A DNA stretch of 32,000 nt from Nostoc punctiforme PCC 73102 (GTDB lineage: Bacteria > Cyanobacteriota > Cyanobacteriia > Cyanobacteriales > Nostocaceae), in NCBI RefSeq assembly GCF_000020025.1, contig NC_010628.1, positions 3,720,001-3,752,000 of the forward strand. Reading direction: 5' to 3'. Position numbers and translations under genes: made by a program. A model generated the notes under the pieces. That model worked only from the letters and a program-made list of their open reading frames with translations, did not search any database and was not told where the DNA came from. Shown here piece by piece: positions 11,101 through 29,200 of the stretch (positions are counted from its first letter, which is position 1; every line of letters begins with the position of its first letter).

Positions 11101-14100
11101 CAAATCTCAGCTCGATGAGAAGGAGTAGATAAACTGGTGGCTTCTTTGCCAAGATAGCGCAGCAAGCCATAGCCAATCCCCTTGTGAGGAATCTGACGCA
11201 ACTGCTCTTTAATTGACTTAATAACATCCCCTTGATTATCTGTAACTCCCAGTTCTAACAACACCGGGAAAAGTGTTGTAAACCAACCGATAGTACGTGA
11301 TAAATCTACATCTGCAAAAATGTCTTCCCGCCCATGACCTTCCAACTCTAACAGCAGGGAGTTCGCACCAGCCCATTTACTCACAACCTGCACTAAAGCG
11401 GTTAACAATATATCATTAATTTGAGTGTTGTAAGCTTTTGGTACTTCTTGTAATAATGCTTGGGTTTGTGTATCATTCAATGATACTGATACAGTGGCAG
11501 CAGATGCAGCAGTGTTAGCACCTTTTTCAAAGTCCACTGGTAAACGCAACACTGGTGTTGTAGATTGTTTTTGCCAACAAGCTAATTCTTCTGATAAAGC
11601 TTCTGATTGTGCATATTCACTCAGTTGTTGCGCCCAATATTGAAAAGATGTTGTTTTGGCGGGTAGCTGAATCGTTTCACCACGGCTAAGTTGCTGATAA
11701 CCTGTCTGTAAGTCATCTAACAAAATCCGCCAAGAAACTCCATCAACCACTAAGTGGTGAATAATAATTAGTAATCGGCTTGGTTGGTCAATTCCCAGAG
11801 ACAATAAGGCAACGCGGATAATCGGTCCTGTTGATAGATTTAAGCTAGCCTGTAGTTGAGAAGCAGTAGCTTCAATAGCATTTTTTTGTTCTGTCTGTGT
11901 AACTGTAGATAAATCTATCTGCAAGAAAGGTACTATCTTATCCGGGACAGTGTGAGTTTGTTTCCAAGATTCACCTGGAATATAACGTAAACGCAATGTA
12001 TCGTGGTGTAGCAACAATTGCTGCAAAACGCGCTTTAAAATTTCTGGGTCTAAGTCTGATGGTACTGTCAACAGAACTGATTGGTTAAAATGGTGCGGCT
12101 CAGGCTGATTTTGCTCAAAAAACCAGTGTTGAATTGGTGTTAATGGCACTGTTCCTGTGACTAAACCTTGTTCTGCCTGGATGTTTTTAGTTGTGCCCGC
12201 TACTGCTGCTAACTCGGCAATGGTTTGATGCCCAAATAATTGTTTGGGACTTAAATTCAGTCCCGCCTGATTAGCTCTGGCAATAATTTGCAAACTGAGG
12301 ATGGAATCGCCGCCGAGTTCAAAGAAGTTATCGTGAATGCCTATTTGTTTGACTCCTAAAACCTCTGCCCAAATATCGACTAATATCTTTTCTGTAGGAG
12401 TTCTGGGGGCAATAAAGTTAACTTCTAGTTCAGGACGTGAATCAGGAGCAGGTAAGGCACGACGGTCTACTTTGCCGTTAGGCGTGAGAGGCAAGGCTTC
12501 TAAGAACACAAACGCTGAAGGCAACATATACTCAGGTAGTTTTGCCTTGAGGAATTGCCGTAAGTCGCTAATAGTTGGTGTTTGTTCTTGATTGCATACT
12601 AAATAAGCAACTAAGCGTTTACTTCGACTTACCTCGGCTGCGCTCGGCACGAGTCGCTCAGTACAAGTATCGCCGGGAATATCTTCTCTTGCTATGACTA
12701 CAGTTCCTTGCACATTTGGGTATTGGCTCAGTACTGCCTCTATCTCGCCCAATTCGATGCGGAAGCCGCGAATTTTTACTTGGTTGTCGATGCGTCCCAA
12801 ATACTCAATATTTCCATCAGCTGAATAACGCGCTAAATCCCCAGTTTTATACAGACGACTCCCGGATTTATCAAAGGGATTAGTAATAAATTTTTCTTGG
12901 GTCAAATCAGGTCGATTCAGGTAGCCTCGTGCTAAACCAACACCACCGATGTGCAACTCACCAGGTACACCAATTGGCACTGGTTGCAGATATTGGTCTA
13001 GTAAATAGGTTTGCACATTCTGTAGCGATCGCCCAATGAATATTTTTGACCCAAAACTAGACAAATTATACACTGTTGCTTCAACAGTGGTTTCTGTAGG
13101 CCCGTAAGCGTTGATTAATTGTGGGTATTGGCCAACATACTCCTGCCAAATTTTTAACTGTGCTGGTAGCGCTTGCTCTCCACCAATAATTACCAGGCGA
13201 ATAGAATTGGGTAATCTTAAATTGCTGTTAGCTAATTCTGAAGTTAGTTGATGCCAGTATGCTGTCGGCAAATCTAAAACTGTGAGTTCCCAATCTTGGC
13301 ATCTTTGCACAAATGTACTGATGGAAGTTAGCATTTCATCGGTGCGTAGCACTAGCGTTGCACCACAACTCAGACAGGGATAAATTTCTTCGGCGGCGAC
13401 ATCAAAACTAATCGATGCAAATTGTAAAATGCGTTGACAATAATTGATGCCATATTCAATTATTGCTGCTTGGATAAAATTTACTAAGGAATAATGTTGA
13501 ATCATTACTCCTTTGGGTTGACCTGTAGAACCTGATGTATAAATTACATAAGCAAGATTTGCTGATGTTACTTGGCTGATACAATTATCATTACTCAAAT
13601 GAGCATAGGCTTGCCAATCGCTATCTAAACTAACCACCTGCGCCCCATGTTCTGGTAGTCCCTTAACTAATTGCTGTTGCGTCACCAATACAGATACTTG
13701 GGAATCTGTCAACATATAAGCTAGTCGCTCTTGAGGATAATCAGGGTCAAGAGGTATATAAGCCCCACCCGCTTTGAGAATCCCCAACATTCCCACCACC
13801 ATGTCTAAGGAACGTTGCACACAAATACCAACTAACACCTCTGGGCCTACACCTAGACTTTGTAGGTAGTGTCCTAGTTGATTAGCTCGATTATTCAATT
13901 CGCGGTAGCTAAGTTTTTGGTCTGCAAACACTACTGCTACTGCATCTGGAGTCAGTTTTACTTGATTCTCAAATAACTCATGAATGCAAAGGTTTTCTGG
14001 ATAGTCTTTTTGCGTATCATTCCATTCCAACAATAATTTTTGCTCTTCTGCTGTTGTGAGCAAGGGCAATTGAGAAACGGGCATTTTTGGATAAGAAACA

Positions 14101-15494
14101 ATATTCTCTAATAAGGTTTGGAAATGACTCGCCATTCGCTCAATGGTAGTAGCATCAAACAAATCAGTATTATATTCCCAGGATGTTACTAATCCATTCC
14201 CAGCCTTGTGAATAGATAAAGTTAAATCAAACGCTGATGTTGAGCTTTCGACGGTAAATGAACTCAAAGTTAAGCCAGGAAGTTCCATTGCTGTCATTGG
14301 AGCATTATTCAGCACAAACATCACCTGAAATAGGGGTGTATGGCTTAAATCTCGTACTGGTTGTAATGCTTCTACCAACAGTTCAAACGGCAAATCTTGA
14401 TGAGCATAAGCCGCCGCCGTCACTTTTTGGACTTTCCTTAGTAATTCTTGAAAACTAGGATTACCTGATACATCAGTACGCAGGACTAAAGTGTTGATAA
14501 AAAAACCAATCAATCCTTCGATTTCACTACGATTACGGTTAGCAGTAGGGGAACCGACTAAAATATCCGTCTGTCCTGTATAACGGTAAAGTAAGATGTC
14601 AAACGCTGTTAACAGCGTCATAAACAACGTCACACCTTCTTGACGGCTCAGTAATTCCAGGGCTTGGGTTAATTCTAAAGGAAGTAAGAAGAATTGATGC
14701 GCTCCCCACATAGTTTGTACTTTCGGCCGGGGTCGGTCAGTAAGTAATTCTAATAAAGCTGGTGCTAGCGCGAGTTGTTTTCGCCAGTAATTGATTTGAG
14801 ATTCTTTAACATCACCTTGCAAAAATTGGCGCTGCCACACTGCAAAGTCAACATATTGAATGGCAAGTTCTGGTAAGGGTGAGACTTTACCTTGAGAAAA
14901 AGCAGTGTAAAGTTCTGCGGTTTCTTGGATAAAGATACCCATTGACCAGCCATCAGAAATAATGTGGTGCATACAGAACAGTAATACATGTTCTGTCTCG
15001 GATAGTGTCAACAATGAAGCCCGGATTAGAAATTCCCTAGCTAGGTCAAACTGGTACTTTGCTTCTGCTGTTGCCAGTTTTTGAGTTTCAATTTCTTGCT
15101 GATTTGCTGGCAAATGTTGTAAGTCTATTACTGTCATTGTCCAAGAATCTACAGGGCGGATAATTTGCACTGCTTGTCCATCTTGGGTAATAAAGTTAGC
15201 GCGTAAGGTTTCGTGGCGACGGATGATTTCGCTGAGGCTTTGTTGTAGCGCTACTGTATTTAGCTGACCTTGGAGGCGTACTGCGCCGGGTATATTATAA
15301 GCAGAACCGTTTGGCTCTAATTGGTCGAGGAACCATAAACGCTGTTGAGCAAAGGATAGGGGGAGAGATTTAAGTTCTTGATTGCGAAGAATTATTTGTT
15401 TAGGTGTAGCTTCTTGTTGTTGTTTTAGTTGCTTTAGTAGCAATTGTTGTTTCTGTGGAGAAAGATTTGCAAGTTGTTTTAATAAGTCACTCAT
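2118..15494 (-). CDS. Non-ribosomal peptide synthetase, three modules, terminating (C-A-T-E / C-A-T-E / C-A-T-TE), 4458 aa
   Basis: This is a single uninterrupted ORF. It has three HHxxxDG condensation motifs, two HHLxVDGVSW epimerase motifs, three SGSTGxPKG adenylation cores, three GG(D/H)S carrier motifs and a C-terminal GHSLGG thioesterase. The start is ATG at 15492-15494 and the stop is TAA at 2118-2120. Confidence 0.97.
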   Translation of the reverse strand: MSDLLKQLANLSPQKQQLLLKQLKQQQEATPKQIILRNQELKSLPLSFAQQRLWFLDQLEPNGSAYNIPGAVRLQGQLNTVALQQSLSEIIRRHETLRANFITQDGQAVQIIRPVDSWTMTVIDLQHLPANQQEIETQKLATAEAKYQFDLAREFLIRASLLTLSETEHVLLFCMHHIISDGWSMGIFIQETAELYTAFSQGKVSPLPELAIQYVDFAVWQRQFLQGDVKESQINYWRKQLALAPALLELLTDRPRPKVQTMWGAHQFFLLPLELTQALELLSRQEGVTLFMTLLTAFDILLYRYTGQTDILVGSPTANRNRSEIEGLIGFFINTLVLRTDVSGNPSFQELLRKVQKVTAAAYAHQDLPFELLVEALQPVRDLSHTPLFQVMFVLNNAPMTAMELPGLTLSSFTVESSTSAFDLTLSIHKAGNGLVTSWEYNTDLFDATTIERMASHFQTLLENIVSYPKMPVSQLPLLTTAEEQKLLLEWNDTQKDYPENLCIHELFENQVKLTPDAVAVVFADQKLSYRELNNRANQLGHYLQSLGVGPEVLVGICVQRSLDMVVGMLGILKAGGAYIPLDPDYPQERLAYMLTDSQVSVLVTQQQLVKGLPEHGAQVVSLDSDWQAYAHLSNDNCISQVTSANLAYVIYTSGSTGQPKGVMIQHYSLVNFIQAAIIEYGINYCQRILQFASISFDVAAEEIYPCLSCGATLVLRTDEMLTSISTFVQRCQDWELTVLDLPTAYWHQLTSELANSNLRLPNSIRLVIIGGEQALPAQLKIWQEYVGQYPQLINAYGPTETTVEATVYNLSSFGSKIFIGRSLQNVQTYLLDQYLQPVPIGVPGELHIGGVGLARGYLNRPDLTQEKFITNPFDKSGSRLYKTGDLARYSADGNIEYLGRIDNQVKIRGFRIELGEIEAVLSQYPNVQGTVVIAREDIPGDTCTERLVPSAAEVSRSKRLVAYLVCNQEQTPTISDLRQFLKAKLPEYMLPSAFVFLEALPLTPNGKVDRRALPAPDSRPELEVNFIAPRTPTEKILVDIWAEVLGVKQIGIHDNFFELGGDSILSLQIIARANQAGLNLSPKQLFGHQTIAELAAVAGTTKNIQAEQGLVTGTVPLTPIQHWFFEQNQPEPHHFNQSVLLTVPSDLDPEILKRVLQQLLLHHDTLRLRYIPGESWKQTHTVPDKIVPFLQIDLSTVTQTEQKNAIEATASQLQASLNLSTGPIIRVALLSLGIDQPSRLLIIIHHLVVDGVSWRILLDDLQTGYQQLSRGETIQLPAKTTSFQYWAQQLSEYAQSEALSEELACWQKQSTTPVLRLPVDFEKGANTAASAATVSVSLNDTQTQALLQEVPKAYNTQINDILLTALVQVVSKWAGANSLLLELEGHGREDIFADVDLSRTIGWFTTLFPVLLELGVTDNQGDVIKSIKEQLRQIPHKGIGYGLLRYLGKEATSLSTPSHRAEICFNYLGQFDQALSTSGSFQLATESAGASQSLYSDRSHILEINGLIVGGQLQINWTYSNNVHQHTTIENLAQEFIQALQALIAHCLSPEAGGYTPTDFPLAQLTQKQLDAELDKIKYQNLEDIYPLSPMQEGMLFHSVYEPESGVYFEQLSCTLKGNLELPAFEQAWQQVIARHSIFRTAFIWENHHQPLQVVYRQVKLPLEINDWRLLSPSEQQDKLEIFIKSEQQQGFQLSLAPLMRLNLIQLNADIYQFVWSHHHLLLDGWSLPLVLKEVFEFYEAICQGRNFNDKPSLPYRNYIAWLQKQDLEQAKVFWQEKLNGFSVPTPLTVEIPLSKRTNQSNYNTQQMQIGGDAIANIQTFTKQHKLTLNNLIQGAWALLLSRYSGQTDIVFGATVSGRPPELLGVESMVGLFINTLPVRITIPEDVEVLPWLKELQAQQVESEQYSYTPLVEIQGWSEIPGGMPLFESIVVFENYPVDASMQEQDSNLDIFDIHCIEQTNYPLTLLAAPGSELSISISYDTSRFEVATITRMLGHLQTIITAIATQPTQRLWKLPLLTKTEQNQLLKESENTQIKELPNQCIHELFELQVERSPDAIAIVYENEQLTYQELNTKANQLAHHLRSLGVSADILVGICVERSIEMLIGILGILKAGGAYVPLDPNYPQERLSFTLADSQVKVLITQQQLLPNLPENQAQILCIDSDWDFIAQSSANNPPRLTTPDNLAYIIYTSGSTGKPKGVLINHANIVRLFTATEEWFHFNQDDIWTLFHSFAFDFSVWEIWGALIKGGRLVIVPYWISRSPADFYQLLCKQQVTVLNQTPSAFGQLIQTEELIKTSESLALRWVIFGGEALELQSLKPWFERHGDKLPQLVNMYGITETTVHVTYRPITIADLSSNAGSVIGCPIPDLQVYILDQNRQLLPMGVPGEMYVGGAGLARGYLNREELTSKVFVAHPFNDDPNARLYKTGDLARYLGNGDLEYLGRIDNQVKIRGFRIELGEIEAAISQHPDVQATVVLARVDNPGDKRLVAYLVLNQQLAISVNELRQFLGSKLPQYMIPAAFVFLDVLPLTSNGKVDRSGLKAPESGRELENRFVAPRTPIEQMLSKIWAEVLGVEQIGIHDNFFELGGDSILSLQIIARANLAGVHLSPKQLFEHQTIALLAAVAGTTRKIQAQQGLVTGLVPLTPIQHWFFEQNQPEPHHYNQSVLLSVPSDLKPELLKRVLQQLLVHHDALRLRFTLKEESWQQVNADFEEAVSLSVVDLSTISPQEQLAALENIGGELQVQLNLSTGPLFKALLIKFGTNQSSRLLLIIHHLAVDGVSWRILLDDLQTGYQQLSRGEAIGLSTKTTSYQYWAQRLSEYAKSDALTEELIYWLNCSQKPVLPIPVDYVNGSNIVTSARLVSVSLNALETQALLQEVPRVYNTQINDILLTALAQVISKWTGSNLVRLNLEGHGREDIFDDVDLSRTIGWFTTIFPVLLELEATDNLGKTLKLVKEQLRHIPHKGIGYGVLRYLHPNKEITTQLQTSLPAQISFNYLGQFDQALDTSSGFKLADEPVGASQSLQSCRVHLLDIGGLISEGQLQIDWTYSSNIHQQSTVENLANEFIQTLQALIAHCLSPDAGGYTPSDFPLAKLTQAQLDVQLSKIKYQNLEDIYPLSPMQQGMLFHSLYAPESGAYFEQLSCTFKGNLKIENFEQAWQQVIDRHSVFRTGFIWENHHQPLQVVYRQVKLPLVIDDWQELSALEQQNKLNIFLESEARRGFQLSLAPLIRLNLIQLDADRYQFIWSHHHLLLDGWSLPLVLKEVFELYEAICEGKSFRFELIAAYKNYIAWLQQQDLAEAQRFWQQKLQGFTAPTPLMVDKPLTNRQQQSGYSEQEIHLSEPVTAALQAFAKNHQLTLNNLVQGAWSILLSRYSGETDVVFGATVSGRPPDLMGVESMVGLFINTLPVRVSVPAEMNLLPWLKELQAQQVECEQYSYTPLVEIQGWSEVPRSMPLFESIVVFENYPVDAAVQQQNGSLDVSNVQAGMEITDYPLTVTSVPGLRLLLSINYDSNRFDADAITRMLGHFQTLLEGMAANQEQQLWELPLLTASEQQQLLWEWNDTQKDYPQNQCVHELFAAQVKLTPDAVAVVFEDQQLTYRELNLRANQLAHYLQTLGVKPDVLVGICVERSLEMVVGILAIVKAGGAYVPLDPNYPSERLSYMLLDSQVSVLLTQQRLIEQLPQHQAKVVYLDSDWSLITQHSETNLVNHTTSKNLVYVIYTSGSTGQPKGVMVTHQNLVNAYLAWEDAYQLRSLCTSHLQMASFSFDVFSGDVVRSLCSGGKLVICPRELLLEPEKLYHLMQIQSIDCAEFVPAVLRNLIQYLERTEQDLSFMKLLIVGSDSWYIKDYQQFQRFISNETRLINSYGVTEATIDSSYFETAAVSLLSDGLVPIGEPFANTQIYILDQYQKPVPIGISGELYIGGSGVSCGYLNRPELTQEKFIANPFSQQESARLYKTGDLARYLSDGNIEYLERSDRQVKLRGFRIELGEIEAILSQHPQLQAVTVIVREDIKGDKRLVAYFVPYQEQTPTIIEMRSFLKSSLPDYMIPSAFVLLEFLPLTPNGKIDRRALPVPDINSLTIDTSFVPPLDIVEQQLTQIWSEILNIYPIGVKDDFFDLGGHSLLAVQLMAKIEQQFGKVLPLAVLFQNSTIENLGSILRQPMDTLSWSSLVPIQSNGYKRPFFCIPGAGGNSIYLYNLAHHLGRDQPFYALQALGLDGESTPHTSVEEMATHYIQAIQSVQTEGPYFLGGHSLGGMVAFEMACQLQKLGHKVALLALLDCGAPENIDNIDTVQQNVEIDDADWLNEIGFLFEQFYGKSLEISYEILQSLTPDTQLQYFQERLQMANLLPAGIGIKQLRGLMQVYKTNMQIVYTTQNIYENKITCFISSETENVSSENSESLEDTRLDWDNFSTKPLDIYVVPGNHATMLNEPNVQVLAEKLRTCIENAQVVN
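2121..2975 (-). other. Type I thioesterase (TE) release domain
   Basis: Contains PFFCIPGAGGNSIY and the nucleophile elbow GGHSLGG (Ser codon 2721-2723). The candidate Asp is in LLDCGAP and the candidate His in VPGNHATML. Confidence 0.9.
3010..3215 (-). other. Peptidyl carrier domain T3
   Basis: FFDLGGHSLLAVQLMAKI; Ser codon at 3111-3113. Confidence 0.9.
3546..3553. repeat. HIP1 palindrome GCGATCGC
   Basis: Exact 8-mer read in the sequence. Confidence 0.95.
4148..4155. repeat. HIP1 palindrome GCGATCGC
   Basis: Exact 8-mer read in the sequence. Confidence 0.95.
4850..6137 (-). other. Condensation domain C3, DCL-type
   Basis: Contains YPLSPMQQGMLFHS...YFEQ and SHHHLLLDGWS (HHH codons 5733-5741). 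It follows E2. Confidence 0.88.
6205..7582 (-). other. Epimerization domain E2
   Basis: Contains PLTPIQHWFFEQ, HHLAVDGVSWRILLDD (HH codons 7161-7166), EGHGRED and FNYLGQFD. Confidence 0.9.
7620..7820 (-). other. Peptidyl carrier domain T2 (epimerase-partner type)
   Basis: FFELGGDSILSLQIIARANLAGV; Ser codon at 7713-7715. Confidence 0.9.
7870..9365 (-). other. Adenylation domain A2, Thr-specific code
   Basis: The hand-read code is D-F-W-N-I-G-M-V-H-K (FDFSVWE, VLNQTPS, VIFGGEA, NMYGITETTVH; Lys codon 7881-7883). This is the canonical Thr signature. The junction PGD|KRLVAY at 8040/8041 is uninterrupted. Confidence 0.88.
9316..9323. repeat. HIP1 palindrome GCGATCGC
   Basis: Exact 8-mer. It encodes the AIA of PDAIAIVYE at the start of the A domain. 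Confidence 0.95.
9450..10745 (-). other. Condensation domain C2, DCL-type
   Basis: Contains YPLSPMQEGMLFHS...YFEQ and SHHHLLLDGWS (HHH codons 10332-10340). It directly follows an E domain. Confidence 0.88.
10045..10052. repeat. HIP1 palindrome GCGATCGC
   Basis: Exact 8-mer read in the sequence. Confidence 0.95.
10830..12170 (-). other. Epimerization domain E1
   Basis: Contains PLTPIQHWFFEQ, HHLVVDGVSWRILLDD (HH codons 11754-11759), EGHGRED and FNYLGQFD. Confidence 0.9.
12215..12410 (-). other. Peptidyl carrier domain T1 (epimerase-partner type)
   Basis: FFELGGDSILSLQIIARANQAGL; the phosphopantetheine Ser codon is at 12303-12305. Confidence 0.9.
12621..12668 (-). repeat. 48-nt composite mini-repeat inserted in frame (adds TCTERLVPSAAEVSRS): a 24-nt element with a related 24-nt element nested in it
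   Basis: The coding strand reads ACTTGTACTGAGCGA[CTCGTGCCGAGCGCAGCCGAGGTA]AGTCGAAGT. The outer 24 nt differ from the 27195-27218 copy at one position. The bracketed 24 nt align to the outer family at about 17 of 23 positions when shifted by one base. Confidence 0.75.
13025..13032. repeat. HIP1 palindrome GCGATCGC
   Basis: Exact 8-mer read in the sequence. Confidence 0.95.
14075..15365 (-). other. Condensation domain C1, LCL-type (accepts the PKS-bound intermediate)
   Basis: Contains LSFAQQRLWFLDQLEP and the active site CMHHIISDGWS (HH codons 14964-14969, residues 176-177). A Gln/Lys-rich 40-aa N-terminal linker precedes it. Boundaries are approximate. Confidence 0.85.
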
Positions 15495-18600: not shown

Positions 18601-20248
18601 CCATATTTACATATTGGGAACCTTGACCGGGAAACAAAAAAGTTACTGGTCTTTGGGTTTTTTCTTGGAAAGTTGTTAAGTACTGGCTCGGCTCTGATGC
18701 TTTGAGTCCAATTATTGCTGACTCTAAATTGCGACACACTAACATCCGCCGATGATTATAAGTTCTGCGACCTACTTGCAGGGTATGTACAACATCAGCT
18801 AAGTTAATATCTGGATGTTGTTGCAAATATTCAGCCAAATTTACGGTCATTGTTTCCAAAGCTGAATCAGTTTTGGCCGAAACAATCAACAGATGATATT
18901 TTCTCCCCTGCTCCTCTGCTCCCCTATCCTCCTGCTCTAACAAAGGGCTTTCTTCGAGAATCAGATGGGCGTTGGTTCCGCCAATTCCAAAGGAGCTAAC
19001 ACCCGACCGCCGGGGAGTATTAACAGAATCCCACTTTGATAACTTAGTATTAACGTAAAAGGGACTGTTGGCAAAGTCAATTTTAGAATTAGGTTGCTCA
19101 AAGTTCAAACTAGCTGGAATCACTTTGTGTTGCAGTGCCAGAGTCGTTTTAATCAACCCCGCAACCCCCGCAGCTGCATCTAAATGTCCCATATTTGTTT
19201 TGAGGGAACCAATCGCACAGAAACCTTTTTTAGCAGTACTAGTACGGAAAGCCTGAGTTAAAGCTTCTAGTTCAATAGGGTCGCCCAAAGGTGTAGCTGT
19301 GCCATGTGCTTCAATGTAGGTGATTGTCTCAGCTGCAATCTCAGATGTAGCTTGAGCCGCAAGAATCACATTTGCTTGCCCTTCTACTCCCGGAGCAGTG
19401 TAACCAATTTTTTGCGCTCCATCATTATTGATTGCCGAGCCTTTAATTACAGCATAAATGCGATCGCCATCTTTGATCGCATTTTCTAAACGTTTGAGTA
19501 CCACAATCCCCAAACCATTACCGCCAACTGCTCCTTTAGCTTTGGCATCAAAAGTCCGACAATGACCATCAACGGAAACAATGCCCCCTTCTTGATAAAT
19601 ATAGCCACTCATTTGTGGTAATCGAATAGAAACACCACCAGCCAGAGCCATTTCACAATCGCCACTTAACAACCCTTGACAAGCTAAGTGAACTGCCACT
19701 AAAGAGGAAGAGCAAGCAGTTTGAACAGTAATACTTGCACCAGAAAGGTCTAATTTATATGAAACAAGGGTGCTGAGATAATCACCATTGGCAATTAAAA
19801 TCGGTGAAACTCCCACAGCTTCGATTAAGTCACTGTTTGGATAGATGTTATCTAGTAAATAGTCATTTTTACCGACGGCAGCGTAAACACCAATAGGACT
19901 TTTATAAGTTTGTGGATTGTAGGCAGCGTTTTCTAAAGCTTCATCAGCACACTCTAAAAACAGACGGTGTTGGGGGTTTAAGATTTCTGCTTCTCTGGGG
20001 GTATAGCCAAAGAAAGCTGCGTCAAACATCTCAATGTCATTTAATATCGCCCCAGCTTTGACATAGTTGGATTGACTTAATAAAGCTGGTTCAATCCCCG
20101 CAGCCAGCAATTCTTCATCGGAGAAAAATTTTACAGATTCGACACCATCTTGCAGATTACGCCAAAATTCTTCAATATTTTTAGCTCCGGGAAACCGACC
20201 GGCTAGGCCAATAATGGCTACTTCTAAACCTGTTTTTTCACTACTCAT
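15632..20248 (-). CDS. Type I modular polyketide synthase, one module (KS-AT-KR-ACP), 1538 aa
   Basis: Contains the KS triad motifs TACSSSL, EAHGTATPLGDPIE and NMGHLDAAAG. The AT has GHSIGE and HAFHS. The KR has TGGLGKIS and YSAANNFLD. The carrier has LGGNSL. The ATG at 20246-20248 overlaps the upstream stop. Confidence 0.97.
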   Translation of the reverse strand: MSSEKTGLEVAIIGLAGRFPGAKNIEEFWRNLQDGVESVKFFSDEELLAAGIEPALLSQSNYVKAGAILNDIEMFDAAFFGYTPREAEILNPQHRLFLECADEALENAAYNPQTYKSPIGVYAAVGKNDYLLDNIYPNSDLIEAVGVSPILIANGDYLSTLVSYKLDLSGASITVQTACSSSLVAVHLACQGLLSGDCEMALAGGVSIRLPQMSGYIYQEGGIVSVDGHCRTFDAKAKGAVGGNGLGIVVLKRLENAIKDGDRIYAVIKGSAINNDGAQKIGYTAPGVEGQANVILAAQATSEIAAETITYIEAHGTATPLGDPIELEALTQAFRTSTAKKGFCAIGSLKTNMGHLDAAAGVAGLIKTTLALQHKVIPASLNFEQPNSKIDFANSPFYVNTKLSKWDSVNTPRRSGVSSFGIGGTNAHLILEESPLLEQEDRGAEEQGRKYHLLIVSAKTDSALETMTVNLAEYLQQHPDINLADVVHTLQVGRRTYNHRRMLVCRNLESAIIGLKASEPSQYLTTFQEKTQRPVTFLFPGQGSQYVNMARELYEVEPTFQTEFDHCAQLLLINFGLDLHRLLYPEASVQETAQAQLQQTHLTQPALFVIEYALAKLWMSWGIKPQAMIGHSIGEYVAACLAGVFSLEDGLTLVITRAKLMQELPKGAMLAVPLPESEIKPLLNEQLSLAAINAPSQCVVSGLADAIATLQNQLTKKGVDCRLLHTSHAFHSTMMEPICAALTEQIAEIQLHSPQIPYISNVTGTWITPSVATDPNYWTKHLRQPVLFNQGVEELLQESDRVFLEVGPGRTLSTFIQQHSDKNTGITALASLRHPRDESSDVAFLQNTLGQLWLAGVEVDWSGLYIHERRQRLALPTYPFERQRYWLDAPNSAEIPSSPQLLPNKKLDISKWLYIPSWKRTVSPSRRHSSPGCTLVFSDDCGLGLGIVRQLELEGETVITLKVGSEFHQISERLYSLNPKNHQDYDTLLQELHRQGLQPQKIIHLWSVTENYTPELEIAEFDKAQETGFYSLLFLAQTLAKHHVIDELQITVVSNNVQQVTGVDIVCPAKATILGPVKVIPQEYPNITCRNIDIIIPKSSQDKLVEQIVAELTCDNLDKVIAYRGYHRLVQTFEPVQWDESVVGTPRLREKGVYLITGGLGKISLLLAEHLAKTVQGNLILIGRSPFPAKDSWEQWLVNHDHTDSISQKIQKLIEIESFGGKVLIINADVSNQQQMQAAIDLAKEKYGRVNGVIHAVAIADSFHAIEQTSYQECLQQFQPKIHGLLVLEKIFQNQKLDFCLLLSSLSSILGGLGFVAYSAANNFLDIFAHKYNPNNSIPWISINWDAWQFDSEPKITGNLAELALNPQEGIKIFQYIFSQPDVNQWVVSTGNLQARIDQWIQLKILGNRKDLKSASSITHHARPNLRNAYIAPSNEIEKCLVNIWQDLLGIEPIGIEDNFFELGGNSLTAIQIISRLREIYLIDLPVNDFFETPKIISLTETIFQAQIANADSEILAQALADLAKLSDEDVQKLLAAE
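15735..15955 (-). other. Acyl carrier domain (PCP-like signature)
   Basis: FFELGGNSLTAIQIISRL; Ser codon at 15848-15850. An acidic C-terminal tail follows (SDEDVQKLLAAE). Confidence 0.88.
16210..17535 (-). other. Ketoreductase (KR) domain with N-terminal structural subdomain
   Basis: The Rossmann motif YLITGGLGKIS is at about 16766-16792. The catalytic Tyr in YSAANNFLD has its codon at 16295-16297. No DH (HxxxGxxxxP), ER or methyltransferase motif occurs between the AT and KR. I could not assign the stereochemical type: the LDD position reads ADS and there is no A-type Trp. Confidence 0.85.
16470..16477. repeat. HIP1 palindrome GCGATCGC
   Basis: Exact 8-mer read in the sequence. Confidence 0.95.
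17760..18646 (-). other. Acyltransferase (AT) domain, malonyl-CoA type
   Basis: Contains FLFPGQGSQY and GHSIGE (Ser codon 18353-18355). The HAFH motif at 18056-18067 is the malonyl-specific signature, as opposed to YASH for methylmalonyl. Confidence 0.85.
18126..18133. repeat. HIP1 palindrome GCGATCGC
   Basis: Exact 8-mer read in the sequence. Confidence 0.95.
18953..20233 (-). other. Ketosynthase (KS) domain
   Basis: The active-site Cys codon is at 19712-19714 (TACSSSL, residue 179). Both His motifs are present, and the domain ends at GGTNAHLILEE. Confidence 0.92.
19460..19467. repeat. HIP1 palindrome GCGATCGC
   Basis: Exact 8-mer read in the sequence. Confidence 0.95.
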
Positions 20249-23200
20249 TGTTTGCCCCCTTTGATGAACGTGCTAACCGTTGTTTGAGACGGTTTCTCCC
20301 GGCTTTGATATCTGTAATTTGATTATTTTTTTTCTCTATATCGGATGCAGAGTCAGTTTTTTCGGAACTTAAATATTTGGCAAGAGTTGAAATAGTGGGA
20401 TATTTAAACATTTCCAGTAAGGAAATATCTTGGTTGAGAAACTCCTGCAACTTTTGAGTTAGCTTCACCATCAGTAAGGAGTGACCACCAAGGTCAAAAA
20501 AATTGTCATCTATCCCTACTTTTTCTAATTGCAACACCTCTTGCCAAATGTTAGCGATCGCTTGTTCAATTTTGCTTCGTGGCGCTACATAACTGGCAGC
20601 AAATTGCGCTGATAAATCAGGTGCAGGTAAGGAGCGACGGTCTATTTTGCCATTTGGTGTCAGAGGAAATTGCTCTAAGAACACAAAGGCCGCAGGAATC
20701 ATGTAATTAGGTAACTGTCTCTGCAAGAAACTGCGTAAATCACTAATACTATGTGTCTGATTTAGTTCAAATATTATATAAGCTACCAAACGGCGTTGGC
20801 AAAGCCCACCGCAGGCATCATCGCTTATATCCTCTCTCGCCAACACTACTACTTCTCGAATGGCAGGATGCTGTAACAGTGCAGTTTCTATTTCTCCCAA
20901 CTCAATGCGGAAGCCCCGAATTTTGACTTGATTATCAATCCGTGCTAAATATTCGATATTTCCATCAGGTAAATAACGCCCTAAATCGCCAGTTTTATAC
21001 AACTTTGAATTGTTAAAGGGATTGGCAATAAATTTCTCTTGTGTCAACTCTAAGCGATTGAGATAACCTTGTGCTAATCCATCACCACCTATATATAATT
21101 CACCAGGAACACCAATAGGTACTGGCTGTAAGTTTTGATCTAATAAATAGATTTGAGTATTAGAAATTGGCTGACCAATAGGGATAGTTGTAGCTGTTGC
21201 AGGTACATCTTCGATTAAAAACCAAGAAGAAAAAGTGGTGCTTTCTGTCGGGCCATAAACATGCAGTAAATGCTGTGGCGCACCATTTTGCAATACCTCT
21301 TTTACCCATCTGGGATCAACAGCCTCGCCACCAAATAAGAGATATCGCAGGGTGTTAAATGCCTGGGGTACAAAACTAGCTAACTGATTAAATAAGGCTG
21401 TGGTTAGGAATAAAACACTAATTTCCTGTTCACGGATATATGCAGCAAATTCTTGGGGTGAGAGGGCTATATTGTGCGTCACACCTACTAGCCTTGCACC
21501 ATGCAAGAGTGCGCCCCATATTTCAAAGGTAGCAGCATCGAAAGACGCATTTGCAGCTTGGGCAATACAATCGTTAGCATCTAACTGTATATAGTTGGTG
21601 TTAAACACTAGGCGATTAACTGCCCGATGGGGAACAGCTACCCCTTTGGGTTTGCCTGTAGAACCGGAAGTATAGATAACATAAGCTAGTTTGTCAGCTG
21701 TAACTTCGCTATGCAGATTTGCCGTACTTTCTCGGTTAATAATATCCCAACCAGTATCTAAACACACCACTGGCTGACCGTATTCTGGCAGCTTTTCAAC
21801 TAATCGCTGTTGCGTCAGCAGCACAGGCACTTGTGAATCTGCCAACATCAAACTTAAGCGTTCTTGGGGATAATCCGGGTCAAGTGGCACATACGCACCA
21901 CCTGCTTTGAGAATCCCCAGCAGTCCCACTAGCATTTCTAAAGAACGTTCGACAAAAATGCCCACCAGCACTTCTGTACCAACACCTAAAGTTCTCAAGT
22001 AATGAGCTAATTGATTAGCTCGACTATTTAACTCTTGGTAAGTAATTTGCTGGCTTCCAAACACTGCCGCTACTAGATCCGGGTTACGTTCCGCCTGGGC
22101 TGTAAACAACTCATGAATGCACTGATTTTGCGGATATTCTGTTTGAGTATTATTCCATTCATTTAATAACTGGTGTTGCTCATTCACTGTGAGCAGAGGT
22201 AGTTGGGAAACTGGTTGTTCTGGATTTGTTACAATACTCTCCAGTAAAGTTTGGAAATGCCCAATCATCCGAGCGATCGTCAATGTATCAAATAAATCAG
22301 TGTTATATTCCCACGCTCCTACTAGTCCCTGGTCAGTGTTCTCAAAAGCTAAAGTCAAATCAAACTTGGCTGTTAAGCTTTCTGTTGTTAATGAACTCAA
22401 AGTTAAACCAGGCAATTCTATATCCGATGTCGGAGTATTCTGAAACACAAACATGACTTGGAATAGCGGTGTATGGCTTAAGTCTCGTTCTGGCTGTAAT
22501 GCCTCTACTAGCAGTTCAAACGGCAAGTCTTGATGAGTATGAGCTTCTAGAGACACTTCCCGAACTCGCTCTAATAATTGCCGGAAACTGGGATTACCGG
22601 AAACATCTGTGCGAAAAACTAAAGTGTTAACGAAGAAACCGATTAATCCTTCTATTTCACTGTAATTCCGATTGGCGATCGCAGAACCGACTAAAATATC
22701 TGTCTGTCCTGTATAGCGGTGAAGTAAGGTATCAAAAGCTGCCAACAATGTCATAAACAGGGTGACACCTTCTTGCCGACTTAATAAGCTTAGTGCTTGG
22801 CTTAACTCCTCAGAAAGTGAGAAAGATTGAGTCGTCCCTCGAAAGGTTTGCACTGCTGGTCTGGGCCGGTCAGTAGGTAGTTCTAATAAAGCTGGTGCGC
22901 CTGCTAGTTGTTCTCGCCAGTAATTAATTTGAGACTCTTTAACCTCACCTTGCAACCACTGTCTTTGCCACACTGCAAAGTCAGCGTATTGGATAGCGAG
23001 TTCTGGTAAGGATGAGAGATGACCTTGAGAAAAAGCGGTGTAAAGTTCTGCTACCTCTTGGACAAAAACACCCATTGACCAACCATCAGAGACAATGTGG
23101 TGCATACAGAACAGCAATATGTTTTCTGTCTCTGATATCGCTAGTAAAGTAGTCCTAATTAACGATTCATTTACTAAGTCAAAGGGCTGCTGGGCTGCTA

Positions 23201-26200
23201 CTGTTGCCAATTGTTGAATTTCAATTTCTCGTTCATCTGCTGGCAAATCCTGTAAGTCTATCACTGTCATTGTCCAAGAACTTACAGGGCGGATAATTTG
23301 CACCGCCTCCCCTGCTTGAGTGATGAAGTTGGTACGTAAAGCTTCATGACGACGGATGATTTCACTGAGGCTTTGTTCTAGCGCTGCAACATTCAGTTGA
23401 CCTTGAAAACTTACTGCGCCTGGGATGTTATATGCAGCACTATTTGGATCTAACTGGTTGAGGAACCATAAACGCTGTTGAGCAAATGAAAGGGGGATGT
23501 TTTCATTTCTAGCTACAGGTTGCAGAGGTGGTATTAATAATTCTGATGAGTTTCGTTGATATTGCTGAATATATTCAGCTAAATTGGCGATCGTCGCAGC
23601 TTCAAATAGACTACGTAAAGGTAACTCTATTTTAAAGGTAGTTCTGATTCGGGAAACAAGTTGAGTTGCCAATAACGAATGTCCGCCCAATTCAAAAAAG
23701 TTATCGTAAACACCTATTTGTTCTACTCGCAGCACATCAGCCCAAATAGGTGCTAATATTTCTTCGATGGGTGTGCGTGGGGCAACAAAATTAACTTCTA
23801 ATTCCCGAAGTGTTTCTGGCAGTGGTAAGGCGCGACGGTCTACTTTGCCATTAGGAGTTAATGGGAGAGTTTCTAAGAATACAAAAGCCGAAGGAATCAT
23901 GTACTCAGGCAACTTTGAACCCAGAAATTGCCGGAGTTCATTTATTGTTGGTGTTGGTTCTTGATTGAGTGCAAGGTAAGCGACTAAGCATTTATCACCT
24001 GGAGTATCTTCACGGGCAATTACTGTTACCTGTAATATTGCTGGGTGTTGGCTCAGTATTGCCTCTATCTCTCCCAACTCAATACGGAAGCCGCGAATTT
24101 TAACTTGGTGATCTATCCGTCCTAAATACTCGATATTCCCATCAGGTAAATAACGCGCTAAATCCCCAGTTTTATATAATTTTGAATTTTGAATTTTGAA
24201 TTTTGAATTATTAAAAGGGTTGGGGATGAATTTTTCTTGTGTCAAATCAGGGCGGTTAAGATAGCCTTGAGCTACACCAGCACCACCGATATGCAACTCA
24301 CCTGGAACACCAATCGGCACAGGTTGGAGATAACTATCAAGGATATAAGCTTGAGTATTAGGAATGGGACGACCAATAGGGGGTTTATCGGAGCGCTCGC
24401 CATTGCCACATTCTGCTACAGTTGCACAGACAGTAGTTTCCGTTGGTCCATAAGCGTTGAAGAAACGTCGCCCAACTGACCATTGCTTAATCAAGTCAGG
24501 AGCGCAAGCTTCACCCGCCACAATGATGTTCTGTAATGCCGGAAGTTCTGCTTGTGGTAGAACTGCTAACGCCGATGGTGGCAAGGTAATGTGGGTAATC
24601 CCATAGTCGCGTAATAATTCAATTAATTCCAAACCAGGTAAAAGAGACTCTTTAGTTCCTAAATACAGCCTTGCACCTGAACCCAATGCCATCACCACTT
24701 CCCAAATTGATGCGTCAAAGCTAAAAGAAGCAAATTGCAGAATCCGACTTGAGGGCAGTAAATCAAACAAATCAATCTGGGCTTGAGCTAAGTTGCATAA
24801 CCCGGAATGTTTCACCATCACACCCTTGGGTTTGCCTGTTGAGCCGGAGGTGTAAATCACATTTACTAAATCCGAGTCTTTCACCCCACTAATTGGATTT
24901 TCTTGGCTGTGTTGGATAATTTGTTCCCAACTTTCATCAATGACTACCAGTGTGGCTTGATGCTCAGGTAATCTTGCAACTAATCGGTGTTGTGTCAGCA
25001 GCAGCGACACTTGAGAATCTGACAAGATATGAGATATTCGTTCTTGGGGATACTCCGGGTCAATCGGTACATAAGCACCACCCGCTTTCAGAATCCCTAA
25101 TAATCCTACTAGCATTTCTAAAGAACGTTCGACACACAGACCAACTAACACATCAACTCTTACACCTAGAGTCCTTAAATAATGGGCTAAGTGGTTCGCT
25201 TGTTGATTTAGTTCTCGGTAAGTGAGTTGTTGATTTTCAAACACCAATGCCACTGCATCGGGGGTGCGTTCCACCTGCATTTCAAAAAACTGATGAATGC
25301 AGATGTCTTGGAGATAGTTTCTTTGCGTATCATTCCATTCTTCTAGCAGCTGGTATTGCTCTTGTGTAGATAAGCCGGAACATAACTCGTAGCTTTCCAG
25401 TGGCTCCTTCACCATTGCATCCAGGGTTTTTACATAATAGCTACTAATAGCTTTTATTTGTTCTCTACACAACTCAGAGGCATCGTAAGCAAAACCAACT
25501 TCTAATTCAGACGAGCCGGGATTCAGCTTAAAGTTAACTGCCAAAGTAAAGTTTGTTTCTTCAACAGACTTTAATCCTAGTAACTCTACATTATTATTGA
25601 GTTCTATGACTGTTTGATATACATGGAAATGCACGAAATTAAAGATAATCTCAAACAAAGGTTGACCACCCAGAATCCTCTGTAATTGCCCTAGAGGATA
25701 TCGGCGAAAAGGTAGCAGCTCCACCTCTGCATCAAATACTTGTCTTATCAAGTCTACCCAAGTGCCTCCAGACAGGTTTAGACGAAATGGCAAGCTATTG
25801 AGGAAGAGTCCCAAAACTTGCTCACTATCAGTCTGTTCTGGTCTTCCATTGGCGACTAAACCTGTTAATACATCAACTTGGTTGCTAATTATACTTAAAA
25901 CTCGCACATGTGCAGCCAATAGCACACTTTTGAGGGGAACACCTATAAATTGAGCTAGCTTTTGCAAGCCGTTGTAAAGATCCGCAGATAAAGGCACATC
26001 TTGTGTGCCAACTTGCCGGACTTTGGCTTTTTGTTGAGAAGAATACCAACGAGGCACCATAGTTATAGTGCATTCTTTCAACTTTTCTGTCCAATAGTAT
26101 TCATGCTCCTTCGAGCCTAAAGCTTGTCGTTCCAAAGCCACAAAATTGCGGAAGGAACTTGAGGGGGATGGCAAAAGCGGTTGGGCTTTTTGGTTTACAA

Positions 26201-29200
26201 GAGAGAAATAATTCCCAAACAACTCATTCAGCATTGAAGCGACACTCCAGCCATCGAGAATAGCATGGTGTTCAGTGAAGCTAAATTGAAACTCCTCTGG
26301 GCTGTAGCAATGAATTTGAAACCGCAACAAGGGTGATTGTTTCCAGTCAAACTTACGATTTTTTTCCGCTTCAAACCAAGCATCTATTTTCTGTTGTTGC
26401 TCATCAACAGAGAGATGACTTAAATCTTTCATTTGTAAGGGAATGGGAACTTGTCGATGAACTAACTGAAGAGGTTCACTGAAGTTGCTTAAATCAATAG
26501 AAGTCCGCAATATGGGATGACGAGCCACAAGCTGCTCTACAGCAGTCTGGAATTTCTCTAGGTTAAAATGAGCTTGAAGATGGAAACTGCTGACGTTGTG
26601 ATAAACAGCAGTATCTTCGTTAAGTTCGCTGTGGAAAAGCATCCCCATTTGTAGCATGGTTAGGGGATAGGCATCTTCTACCTCATCAGGTAGTTTCTGG
26701 CGGTCTGTTTCAGAAATCAGACTGAAAGGTTTTTCTGATTCAATAATGACTCTACTAACTTCTACAGATTGGAGTTCCTGCACCAGATTAGAAATTGTCT
26801 GATGCACAAACAATTGTTGTAGTGAGAAGCTTAAACCTTGCTTCTGGGACTGGGACTGTACCTGTATACTTCTGATGGAGTCTCCACCTAAAGCAAAGAA
26901 GTTATCATTAATGCCTACCTGTTCGAGTCCGAGAACTTGCGCCCAAATGTCAGTTAGTAGTTTTTCCGTGGGTGTACGTGGCGCAACAAAAGCTTTTTCT
27001 TCTGTTCTTGCTGTATCAGGTACAGGTAAGGCACGACGGTCTACTTTACCGTTAGATGTTAGTGGTAGGCTGTCCAAGAAGACAAAAGCCGCAGGTATCA
27101 TATACTCAGGCAGCTTTGAGTCCAGGAATTGCCGCAGGTCGTTAACAGTGAGTACTTGTGCCTGATGGATTACTAAGTAAGCAACTAAACGTTTACTTTG
27201 ACTTCGCTCAGTACAAGTATCTCCTGGGGTATCAACTCTGGCGATAACTACGCTTGCTTGCACTTGGGGATGTTGAGTGAGTGCTGCTTCTATTTCTCCC
27301 AATTCGATGCGGAAGCCACGAATCTTTACTTGGTTATCAATGCGTCCCAGATATTCTAAGTCGCCATTTTCTAAATATCTGGCTAAGTCTCCAGTTTTGT
27401 ACAGACGGGCATTGGGGTCATCACTGAAGGGATTGGCAACAAATACCTGAGATGTCAATTCTACACGGTTGAGATAACCACGAGCTAACGAAGCACCGCC
27501 GACATACATTTCTCCAGGAACACCTATCGGTAATAATTGTTTGGCTTTATCCAGGACATAAACCTGTAAGTCAGGGATGGGGCAACCAATGACACTGCCA
27601 GTATTGCTGCTCAAATCTGCGATAGTGATGGGGCGATAGGTGACATGAACGGTAGTTTCTGTGATTCCGTACATATTCACCAACTGCGGATACTTATCTC
27701 CATGTCTCTCAAACCAAGGTTTTAAGCTTTGTATTTCTAACGCTTCGCCACCAAAGATTACCCATCTTAGAGCTAAGTTTGCTGGTGTGTCGATGAGTTG
27801 TTCTGCTTGAATCAATTGGCGAAAGGCGGAGGGTGTTTGATTTAAGACTGTGACTTTTTGTTTATCTAATAATTTTAAGAAGTCTGCGGGGGAACGACTC
27901 ACCCAGTAAGGTACTACTACTAATCGCCCGCCTTTGATTAATGCTCCCCAAATTTCCCAGACTGAAAAGTCAAAGGCGAAGGAGTGAAATAGTGTCCATA
28001 CATCTTGTTGATTGAAGTAAAACCATTCTTCTGTGGCAGTAAATAGTCGCACGACATTGGCGTGATTAATTAATACGCCTTTGGGTTTTCCTGTGGAGCC
28101 TGATGTGTAAATTATGTAAGCTAGATTGGCAGAGGTGGTGACAATTTGGGGGTTTTGTACACTTTGTTGGGCAATAATTTCCCAGTCGGCATCAATACAT
28201 AAAACTTGTGCTTGATGGGCGGGGAGTTTGGATAGTAGTTGCTGTTGGGTTATTAGTACTTTGACTTGGGAATCTTCTAGGCTAAAGCTGAGTCGTTCTT
28301 GGGGATAATTGGGGTCAAGGGGTACATACGCTCCTCCGGCTTTGAGAATTCCTAAGATTCCTATTAGCATTTCTATGGAACGCTCTACGCAGATGCCGAC
28401 TAATATTTCTGCTCCCACTCCCAGATTTCTTAAGTGGTGTGCTAGTTGATTGGCTCGATTATTTAATTCTTGGTAGGTGAGTTGCTCGTCTTCATAGACA
28501 ATTGCGATCGCATCTGGGCTACACTCTACTTGCAATTCAAATAACTCATGGATACACTGCTCTTGAAAATAGGTAGTTTGCGTGTTGTTCCACTCCGACA
28601 GCAGTTGATTTTCTTCGGTTTTTGTGAGTAAAGGTAATTCGTTTAGGTGTTGATGGGGGTTAGCTGCTAAACTTTCCAGTAATATCTGGAAATGCCCCAG
28701 CATCCGGCTGATTGTAGCTGCATCAAAGCGATCGCTATCATAGCTGATGCCTACTGATAATTGTCTACCAGGAATAACTGCCAAATTTAGAGGATAATTT
28801 GTGCGTTCAATGCTCCGAACATTAGAAATATTGATGCCGTTGTTCTGTTCAGAAGCATCAATTGGATAATTTTCAAATACTACAATGCTCTCAAATAGAG
28901 GCATTCCCTTTGGTATTTCAGTCCAACTTTGAATTTCTACTAGTTGGTTATATGAGTGTTGCTCACGCTCTACTTGCTGTGCCTGTAATTCTTTGAGCCA
29001 AGGCAATACTTCTATCTCTGCTGGTACAGAAACCCGGATTGGCAAGGTATTGATAAACAATCCCACCATCGATTCTATCCCGACAATATCTGGTGGACGA
29101 CCGGAGACAGTAGCGCCAAAAATCACATCTACTTCGCCACTGTAACGTGAAAGTAAAATGGCCCATGCTCCTTGGACAAGATTATTCAGTGTTAACTGAT

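Follow-up and report, generated by a model that had tools for sequence, protein, structure and literature searches.

A short HIP1-embedded repeat, probably of the SDR5 type, in an adenylation-domain hairpin of a Nostoc peptide synthetase, and the recurrence of unrelated repeats in the same loop

The SDR families of tiny dispersed repeats were reportedly named by Elhai et al. in 2008 (Genome Res 18:1484) and are said to span between 21 and 27 nt; the abstract of that work is also said to describe self-nesting families, SDR1 and SDR4. In-frame repeats are reportedly known from a different bacterial group as well, in the form of the Rickettsia palindromic elements (RPEs) that Ogata et al. are said to have found, in 2000, inserted in frame into protein-coding genes. 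Here we analyze positions 3,720,001 to 3,752,000 of contig NC_010628.1 of Nostoc punctiforme PCC 73102 (the window, 32,000 nt in full), which carries a hybrid cluster of non-ribosomal peptide synthetase (NRPS) and polyketide synthase (PKS) genes, and we focus on a GC-rich insertion in one of its NRPS adenylation (A) domains, at a site designated D3061. The closest described system is SDR5, which inserts precisely within HIP1 according to a summary of the earlier work (PMC4390886, summarising Elhai et al. 2008) and is found, as a passage of another paper has it, only in the Nostocaceae lineage (PMC5861425). We consider it probable that the extra sequence of D3061 is one SDR5-type copy residing at a HIP1-like site in the insertion-tolerant tip of a hairpin.

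The sequence in question, the 24-mer GCCTGCGGTGGGCTTTGCCAACGC, occupies 20793-20816 of the minus (coding) strand within an NRPS open reading frame (ORF D, 3242 aa), and the corresponding loop, in module 3, reads REDISDD-ACGGLCQ-RRLVAY. A first-pass annotation of the window had reported a repeat element here as an insertion of 24 nt; the sequence was found as stated and the insertion is in frame, but its unit size has to be corrected to 21 nt (7 aa). Among the closest homologs, 86 of 87 loops have 25 aa between GEIE, at the end of core motif A8, and LVAY, a spacing shared by 484 of the 707 loops drawn from 150 representative multi-module NRPSs; D3061 has 32 aa, seven residues more. Since 21 nt separate GCGAT from CGC in copies of the element elsewhere, the terminal CGC of the 24-mer belongs to the flank; it is the first Arg codon after the insert, and it is present in all orthologs (|CGCCGT). 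The element proper, GCCTGCGGTGGGCTTTGCCAA (20796..20816, minus strand), is thereby read in frame as ACGGLCQ, contains no stop codon in the frame used and leaves the gene open. Its 5′ flank, GCGATGAT (20817..20824, minus strand), is made up of the HIP1 5′ half GCGAT and one extra GAT, with tGAT as the element-adjacent bases, and its 3′ flank, CGC (20793..20795, minus strand), supplies the 3′ end of HIP1 while encoding the first Arg of RRLVAY, yielding the local context GATGAT|CGCCGT. For a unit ending in AT, the boundaries GCG|AT...|ATCGC and GCGAT|...|CGC amount to the same thing, each delimiting 21 nt, and ATGCCTGCGGTGGGCTTTGCC (20798-20818, minus strand) is an equally valid parse of the same D3061 element. 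Neither the 24-mer nor the unrelated element found in other loops has a further copy in the window at up to three mismatches. The site sequence is 100% identical across independent assemblies of the same strain, based on several sequencing runs, and this rules out an assembly artefact.

The 21-nt element belongs to a dispersed family. A BLAST search with the site against plasmids returned multi-copy matches in Nostoc and Trichormus plasmids that cover GAT, the 21 nt and CGC, and the copies read gcgat|GCCTGCGGYGGGCnnnGCCnn|cgc. With GCGAT upstream in 12 of 16 distinct copies and CGC downstream in 15 of them, the 21-mer evidently splits the HIP1 octamer GCGATCGC. The canonical 29-mer is present in 46 Nostocales plasmids, 37 of them from Nostoc and the remainder from Aulosira, Trichormus, Nodularia, Tolypothrix, Scytonema and Calothrix, with as many as 24 places on a single plasmid of 1.04 Mb and 13 on one of 327 kb. 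The family appears also in a few viral or prophage contigs, every time between gcgat and cgc, and its matches outside the cyanobacteria are partial chance matches. That the insert would belong to a GC-rich dispersed repeat of Nostoc had been proposed in the first-pass annotation, and the form suggested there is indeed close to real copies, such as GCCTGCGGCGAGCTACGCTTACGC in L004. Two alternative stems of 3-4 bp can be drawn for the family, each paired in at least 13 of the 16 copies and each showing one or two double changes (C-G to T-A in one case, G-C to A-T twice); the folding energy of the elements is no better than that of shuffled sequences. The 21-mer has no terminal inverted repeats and is flanked by the two HIP1 parts without duplication. 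Derivation from a MITE or an insertion sequence was considered and rejected, as there are neither terminal inverted repeats nor a target-site duplication of fixed length.

The orthologous sites are empty. We searched for orthologs of the D3061 loop by anchoring on the adjoining PKS gene and retrieving the flanks of its matches, which identified PKS orthologs at 77-79% identity in Calothrix brevissima NIES-22, Nostoc sp. MG11, a JGI metagenome and a Logan assembly. In all four orthologous clusters the module that immediately precedes the PKS has a loop of 25 residues, reading REDVAGE|RRLVAY (GGCGAA|CGCCGT), REDVVNE|RRLVAY, REDVAVG|RRLVAY and REDVGSD|RRLVAY, the last of them (L129) encoded by GGGAGCGAT|CGCCGT and thus bearing a perfect HIP1 (AGCGAT|CGC) exactly at the point where the window holds its 21-mer. 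Since the four ortholog loops are empty, and one of them has a perfect HIP1 at the junction, the insert of D3061 is derived and sits at a HIP1-type site. The closest homologs of the D3061 A domain, the best of which is about 70% identical, are likewise devoid of the insert. In L122, a strain 98.1% identical to the window over 24.6 kb, the D3061 insert is identical.

The host of the insertion is an NRPS A domain, as indicated by its AMP-binding and AMP-binding_C Pfam domains, by the A8 (GRxDxQVKIRGxRIELGEIE) and A10 (NGKxDR) motifs of its translation and by its matches in the PDB. When aligned to the solved A domains thus matched (LgrA, ApnA A1, McyB, PheA and SrfA-C), these show a gap of seven residues exactly at ACGGLCQ. 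An AlphaFold2 model built on 61 sequences, of moderate confidence (mean pLDDT 73), sets the insert between two long strands (437-447 and 458-467 in the numbering of the modelled segment), with residues 448-457 at pLDDT below 50. As modelled, ACGGLCQ is the tip of a solvent-exposed β-hairpin, in keeping with the exposure that the first-pass annotation had supposed, and the inserted segment is predicted to be disordered. The four residues preceding the junction differ everywhere, being VAGE, VVNE, VAVG and VGSD in the orthologs and ISDD in the window. Among the 707 representative loops, 16 (2.3%) exceed the canonical length by at least four residues and 11 (1.6%) by at least seven, nearly all of them with non-repeat sequence, and a metagenome scan unbiased with respect to the junction returned further extended loops and zero SDR-type loop inserts. 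Given this variability among orthologs and the extensions seen in representative NRPSs and metagenomes, the loop is generally tolerant of insertions, long extensions being nevertheless uncommon. SDR-type inserts occur in one of the 707 representative loops, in none of the 87 loops of close homologs and in three of the seven loops of the window. The latter proportion is far above the background rate, and the excess is worth following up, together with the polymorphism between strains described below.

The sequence of events that we favor can be outlined as follows. A 21-nt HIP1-embedded repeat (SDR5) would have inserted at a HIP1 or near-HIP1 site encoding an Asp|Arg or Glu|Arg junction, and this point would correspond to the tip of the β-hairpin between core motifs A8 and A9. 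The resulting extension of seven residues would have been tolerated and kept, on account of its 21-nt length, the absence of in-frame stops and the exposed, variable nature of the tip. The inserts of two other loops, D928 and B961, would be independent events involving a different, self-nesting SDR family with a 24-nt unit, and the three hits would coincide because the loop is one place in NRPSs where in-frame insertions survive, the D3061 loop offering in addition the DNA target. For D3061, a HIP1-like target combined with tolerance accounts for the site, and targeting specific to the loop is not needed. At the density of about one SDR5-type copy per 25-45 kb estimated for Nostoc plasmid DNA, one copy in a 32-kb window is the expected number, and the only occupied HIP1-like site in the window is the tolerant D3061 hairpin.

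Several considerations weigh against this scenario. The D3061 copy does not lie in a perfect HIP1, its flanks matching the octamer at six of eight positions (tGAT|...|CGC), or at five of eight (G|...|AACGC) under the published parse, and the canonical GCGAT is displaced 3 nt further upstream, so that an extra GAT or a degenerate target must be assumed. Three readings of the target fit the data: a degenerate HIP1 (GATGATCGC); the published parse, GATG|AACGC, which shares GAACGC with two of the orthologs; and a GAT duplicated after insertion. None of the window's 15 perfect HIP1 sites is occupied, and hence the presence of the target alone does not predict the site. The SDR5-type label follows from the HIP1-embedding criterion rather than from a match to a published consensus, and the dispersal of the family is documented for related Nostocales replicons rather than for the source genome. 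The mechanism by which the D3061 element was inserted, its tolerance and its neutrality for enzyme function are all things that we infer. Finally, tolerance does not explain why the 24-nt family keeps to a constant junction and orientation.

Seven C-terminal subdomains of A domains are visible in the window, and the first-pass annotation rightly counted three of their loops as hit: D928 is longer by 8 aa, B961 by 16 aa and D3061 by 7 aa, and the remaining four read ...RED.PGD|KRLVAY with zero extra residues. It was also correct in regarding the D3061 insert as unrelated in sequence to the other element. In comparison with orthologs, the three loop inserts are the sole window-specific in-frame insertions of at least 7 aa in the well-aligned parts of three genes. 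The loop of D928, in module 1 of ORF D, carries a single 24-nt element, ACTTGTACTGAGCGAAGTCAAAGT (27195..27218, minus strand), and reads PGD-TCTERSQS-KRLVAY. That of B961, in module 1 of ORF B, carries a 48-nt composite (12621..12668, minus strand) in which an outer 24-mer, ACTTGTACTGAGCG...AAGTCGAAGT, encloses a nested inner copy, ACTCGTGCCGAGCGCAGCCGAGGT (12631-12654, minus strand), and reads PGD-TCTERLVPSAAEVSRS-KRLVAY. The consensus of this family is ACTTGT-RCY-GAGCG-N-AGYCGARGT, its positions 7-9 co-varying with positions 22-24 (ACT/AGT versus GCC/GGT), and at most a single A could represent a target duplication. Copies in Nostoc plasmids are mostly intergenic, and others occur in viral contigs. 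In B961, L007 and L038 the inner copy is nested at the same internal point, GAGCG|A. Copies are found within heptamer arrays too, one in L005 being flanked on both sides by atcagtt and one in L007 lying inside an attacga array. Nesting of copies within their own copies at a fixed point and embedding in heptamer arrays are features shared with the self-nesting SDR families, into which the 24-nt family fits, SDR1 and SDR4 being the candidates. We know of no report of such families recurring at one codon junction across paralogous protein domains.

The inserts of D928 and B961 are absent from their positional orthologs, the Calothrix ortholog of B961 exhibiting a clean gap of 16 aa. The closest paralog of the D928 A domain, B2491 (78-93% nucleotide identity), has an empty loop, and the A domains of B961 and D928 are about 61% identical overall and about 78% identical near the loop, like any pair of modules. 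Hence, with identity at the level of any module pair and empty nearest neighbors, the two inserts are separate events. Module duplication or long-tract gene conversion, considered as the source of the two 24-nt hits, is ruled out by the identities of the flanks. The D928 loop of L122 (L122:2929-3080) contains 48 nt, TCTELSRSSTAEVSRS, instead of the 24 nt of the window; the internal arrangement of this 48-mer differs from the nesting of B961, L007 and L038, and its 3′ 24 nt (one mismatch) correspond to the B961 loop of the same cluster, as does the adjoining flank AAACGC. Apart from the 24-nt indel, the two alleles are distinguished by at least three base changes in the element and one in its flank, against an overall divergence of 1.9%, and no other 24-nt indel occurs in the 24.6 kb compared. 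The coexistence of 24 and 48 nt in strains that are 98.1% identical thus implies ongoing turnover of the D928 site.

Further copies of the 24-nt family were noticed in the NRPS genes of relatives. In Fischerella sp. CENA71 (L038), a single NRPS ORF contains two identical copies of a 48-nt nested composite, at approximately 4374-4421 (plus strand) and 6099-6146 (minus strand), one copy being located in the A8-A9 loop and the other 1.7 kb away, reversed and in frame (TSTSFGSAQDKSLSTS); this duplicate suggests that the composite moves as a unit. In the Nostocales cyanobacterium LEGE 12452 (L034), two more 24-nt copies are present in frame at around 4900-5040 (minus strand), about 1.2 kb downstream of the filled loop of the same ORF, one of the two being nested and reversed.

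Altogether, loop inserts of the 24-nt family were located in six A domains from four genera, invariably at the D|K junction and with one and the same orientation: B961 and D928 of the window, P0279, LEGE 12452, Nostoc DedQUE12b and Fischerella CENA71. P0279 stems from a search unbiased with respect to the junction; L034, L038 and L049 were found with a pattern requiring the flanks CCNGGNGAT and AARCGN, are therefore biased towards D|K and were not counted for junction specificity. The six elements are 0-4 mismatches apart in flanks that are 57-82% identical, and their nearest neighbors are empty loops. It is possible that this recurrence reflects a preference for site and orientation or short-patch copying between A8-A10 segments. 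That the DNA of the hairpin loop is in itself a preferred integration site, with the SDR machinery recognizing local A-domain sequence or structure near GAT|AAACG or GAT|CGC, appears doubtful to us. It would explain why every 24-nt insert found shares junction, orientation and frame in hosts with such dissimilar flanks; with 0-2 departures from the family consensus, the elements look like recent independent arrivals, and reverse copies, which exist elsewhere and would encode an equally hydrophilic TSTS... segment, were not seen in the loop. Yet the flanks of at least 13 other 24-nt copies share no GAT|AAACG motif, their sole regularity being an A (sometimes G) after the element, and the SDR5-type element has an unrelated target in HIP1. 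Moreover, three of the six cases come from the pattern that requires this junction, and the unbiased metagenome scan yielded no further SDR-type loop inserts. Somewhat less likely still is that one 24-nt loop insertion spread by short-patch gene conversion or template switching between conserved A8-A10 segments, a process that would reproduce junction, orientation and frame. The downstream DNA, AAACGYTTAGTTGCTTA, is near-identical in most modules, and both the resemblance of the 3′ half and flank of the L122 48-mer to B961 of the same cluster and the presence of identical composites twice in one Fischerella ORF speak for such copying. Against it, the upstream flanks of filled loops diverge within 9 nt and identity over ±140 nt is 76%, so that tracts shorter than about 60 nt would be needed; the second Fischerella copy is inverted and sits at a non-homologous position, a sign of transposition-like movement, and the process is inapplicable to the SDR5-type element. 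The broader proposition that the A8-A9 hairpin tip is a true recurrent landing site of the 24-nt self-nesting family, specific in junction and orientation through either an unrecognised target rule or copy-paste between modules, we hold to be rather improbable.

Two other explanations bear on the inserts in general. Selection for a function, be it in tuning A-domain alternation, in docking or as a signal of the operon at the RNA or DNA level, might be suspected from the filling of three of seven loops in a single cluster, from the retention of all three in a second strain and from the identity of the SDR5 copy in both strains. Nonetheless, orthologous clusters work with empty loops, the insert sequences correspond to the consensus of genome-wide repeats, one insert is polymorphic in length between near-identical strains and the inserted segment is predicted to be disordered, and we deem such selection very unlikely. 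Least credible of all is ordinary loop-length variation, in which the extra residues would be non-repeat sequence arising through indel drift. Non-repeat extensions of 4 to 16 residues or more do exist in the loops of other bacteria, and the folding energies cited above bring no support for a structured element. However, the family to which the 21 nt of D3061 belong recurs, between the same flanks, in dozens of Nostocales replicons, where identity to them reaches 100%, and a chance match of the element in the window is not expected. The repeat origin also withstands the objection, raised in advance by the first-pass annotation, that non-repeat variation might be common at this position, since extensions of seven or more residues make up only 1.6% of the 707 loops.

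The hairpin is, on the other hand, not the sole landing place of the 21-nt family in NRPSs, as attested by copies in a Nostoc plasmid and in a Calothrix ortholog. The former, at L002:20001-20028, is found within the NRPS coding sequence 17434-22164 of plasmid p057_G of Nostoc sp. C057, in frame at a different A-domain position, between A5 and A6; it occupies a perfect HIP1 and is read as PIIGCA-MPAAGVA-IANT, in a frame different from that of the window copy. The latter is a degenerate SDR5-like in-frame insert, GAT|ACCTGTGGTGGGCAAAACCAA|CGT (SDTCGGQN), at L125:16655-16690 in the ORF B ortholog of Calothrix brevissima NIES-22, at another A-core position where the window reads YCQR (approximately 13420-13440), and it perhaps represents an older copy of which the window lineage has lost a part. 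These cases set limits to what the first-pass annotation had proposed. Its statement that such insertions occur nowhere else in coding DNA holds for the window and fails for the NRPS genes of other Nostocales, where both families are found in frame at other positions; the same copies contradict its suggestion that the loop is the only place where selection tolerates them. The common target that it had put forward, GGnGAT|AAACGnTTAGTTGC, does not apply to the D3061 element, for which HIP1 or near-HIP1 takes its place. As for the choice that it drew between target and tolerance, both operate in the SDR5-type case, HIP1 combining with tolerance, and in that of the 24-nt family a preference for site and orientation or homology-driven copying may be at work.

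The hybrid cluster in the window comprises, all on the minus strand, a partial NRPS (30044-31999), ORF D (20241..29969), with three C-A-T modules, an intact reading frame and the D928 and D3061 loop inserts, a PKS with KS-AT-KR-ACP architecture (15632-20248) and ORF B (2118..15494; 4458 aa), with four modules; an MFS transporter is also part of it. ORF B contains, besides the filled B961 loop, two empty loops with the sequence GAT|AAACGC (8025-8033 and 3426-3434, minus strand). The loop of module 2 of ORF D is also empty (GAT|AAATGC, 23988..23996, minus strand), as is a fourth one, in ORF E (GTC|AAACGC, 31910-31918). Inside the coding DNA of ORF D there is also a perfect tandem heptamer array, AATTTTG x4.6 (24178-24209, minus strand), positioned between the A6 and A7 motifs of module 2; it reads NSKFKIQNSK, adds four residues (KFKI) with respect to the Calothrix ortholog and constitutes a second kind of Nostoc repeat that extends an NRPS loop in frame. 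After their first module, the D orthologs of L125 and L127 carry some 450 additional residues containing an HHxxxDG motif; this segment, absent from ORF D of the window, is probably an epimerisation or condensation-like domain.

The nature of the element and its association with HIP1 are already published for this cyanobacterial group, and the D3061 element is a new instance of that published kind, in what is probably the species from which the kind was first reported. The advance is thus incremental, and the recurrence of inserts in one loop is a modest new observation. What D3061 contributes is a case at base resolution, complete with empty orthologous sites, of a 21-nt HIP1-embedded repeat entering an essential multidomain enzyme in frame and being kept, which supports the claim of mobility made for SDR elements and implies that protein loops in the Nostocales can be lengthened by genome-wide repeats instead of local drift. 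The 24- versus 48-nt polymorphism between 98%-identical strains indicates that the process is recent. For NRPS engineering, it is of interest that the A8-A9 hairpin tip accepts from 7 to 16 extra residues in synthetases that occur in nature and are apparently maintained; for annotation, that inserts of this kind can be mistaken for sequencing errors or for variation relevant to specificity. Were the loop a genuine recurrent landing site, tiny mobile repeats would be actively remodeling NRPS enzymes, and the loop would represent a naturally validated, engineerable insertion point.

The likeness to SDR5 extends to the tiny GC-rich unit, the many dispersed copies, the confinement to the Nostocales, the embedding in HIP1 and perhaps a short internal stem, whereas the D3061 copy departs from it in being coding and in frame, in lying at a near-HIP1 rather than a perfect HIP1 and in having an extra GAT. 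HIP1 itself supplies the flanks of the element, and is the target and not the inserted sequence. RPEs offer a parallel from another bacterial group, since they too are reportedly in-frame repeats kept within ORFs at surface-exposed positions of the protein, but they are 100-150 nt long and unrelated in sequence, as against 21-24 nt for the SDRs. REP/REPIN elements and MITEs are likewise short, non-autonomous and dispersed, with the potential to form hairpins; SDRs are nevertheless much shorter and devoid of terminal inverted repeats, and REPs are extragenic. Nor do we know of any RAYT or transposase associated with SDRs, and it is among the latter that the D3061 element finds its closest counterpart, SDR5.

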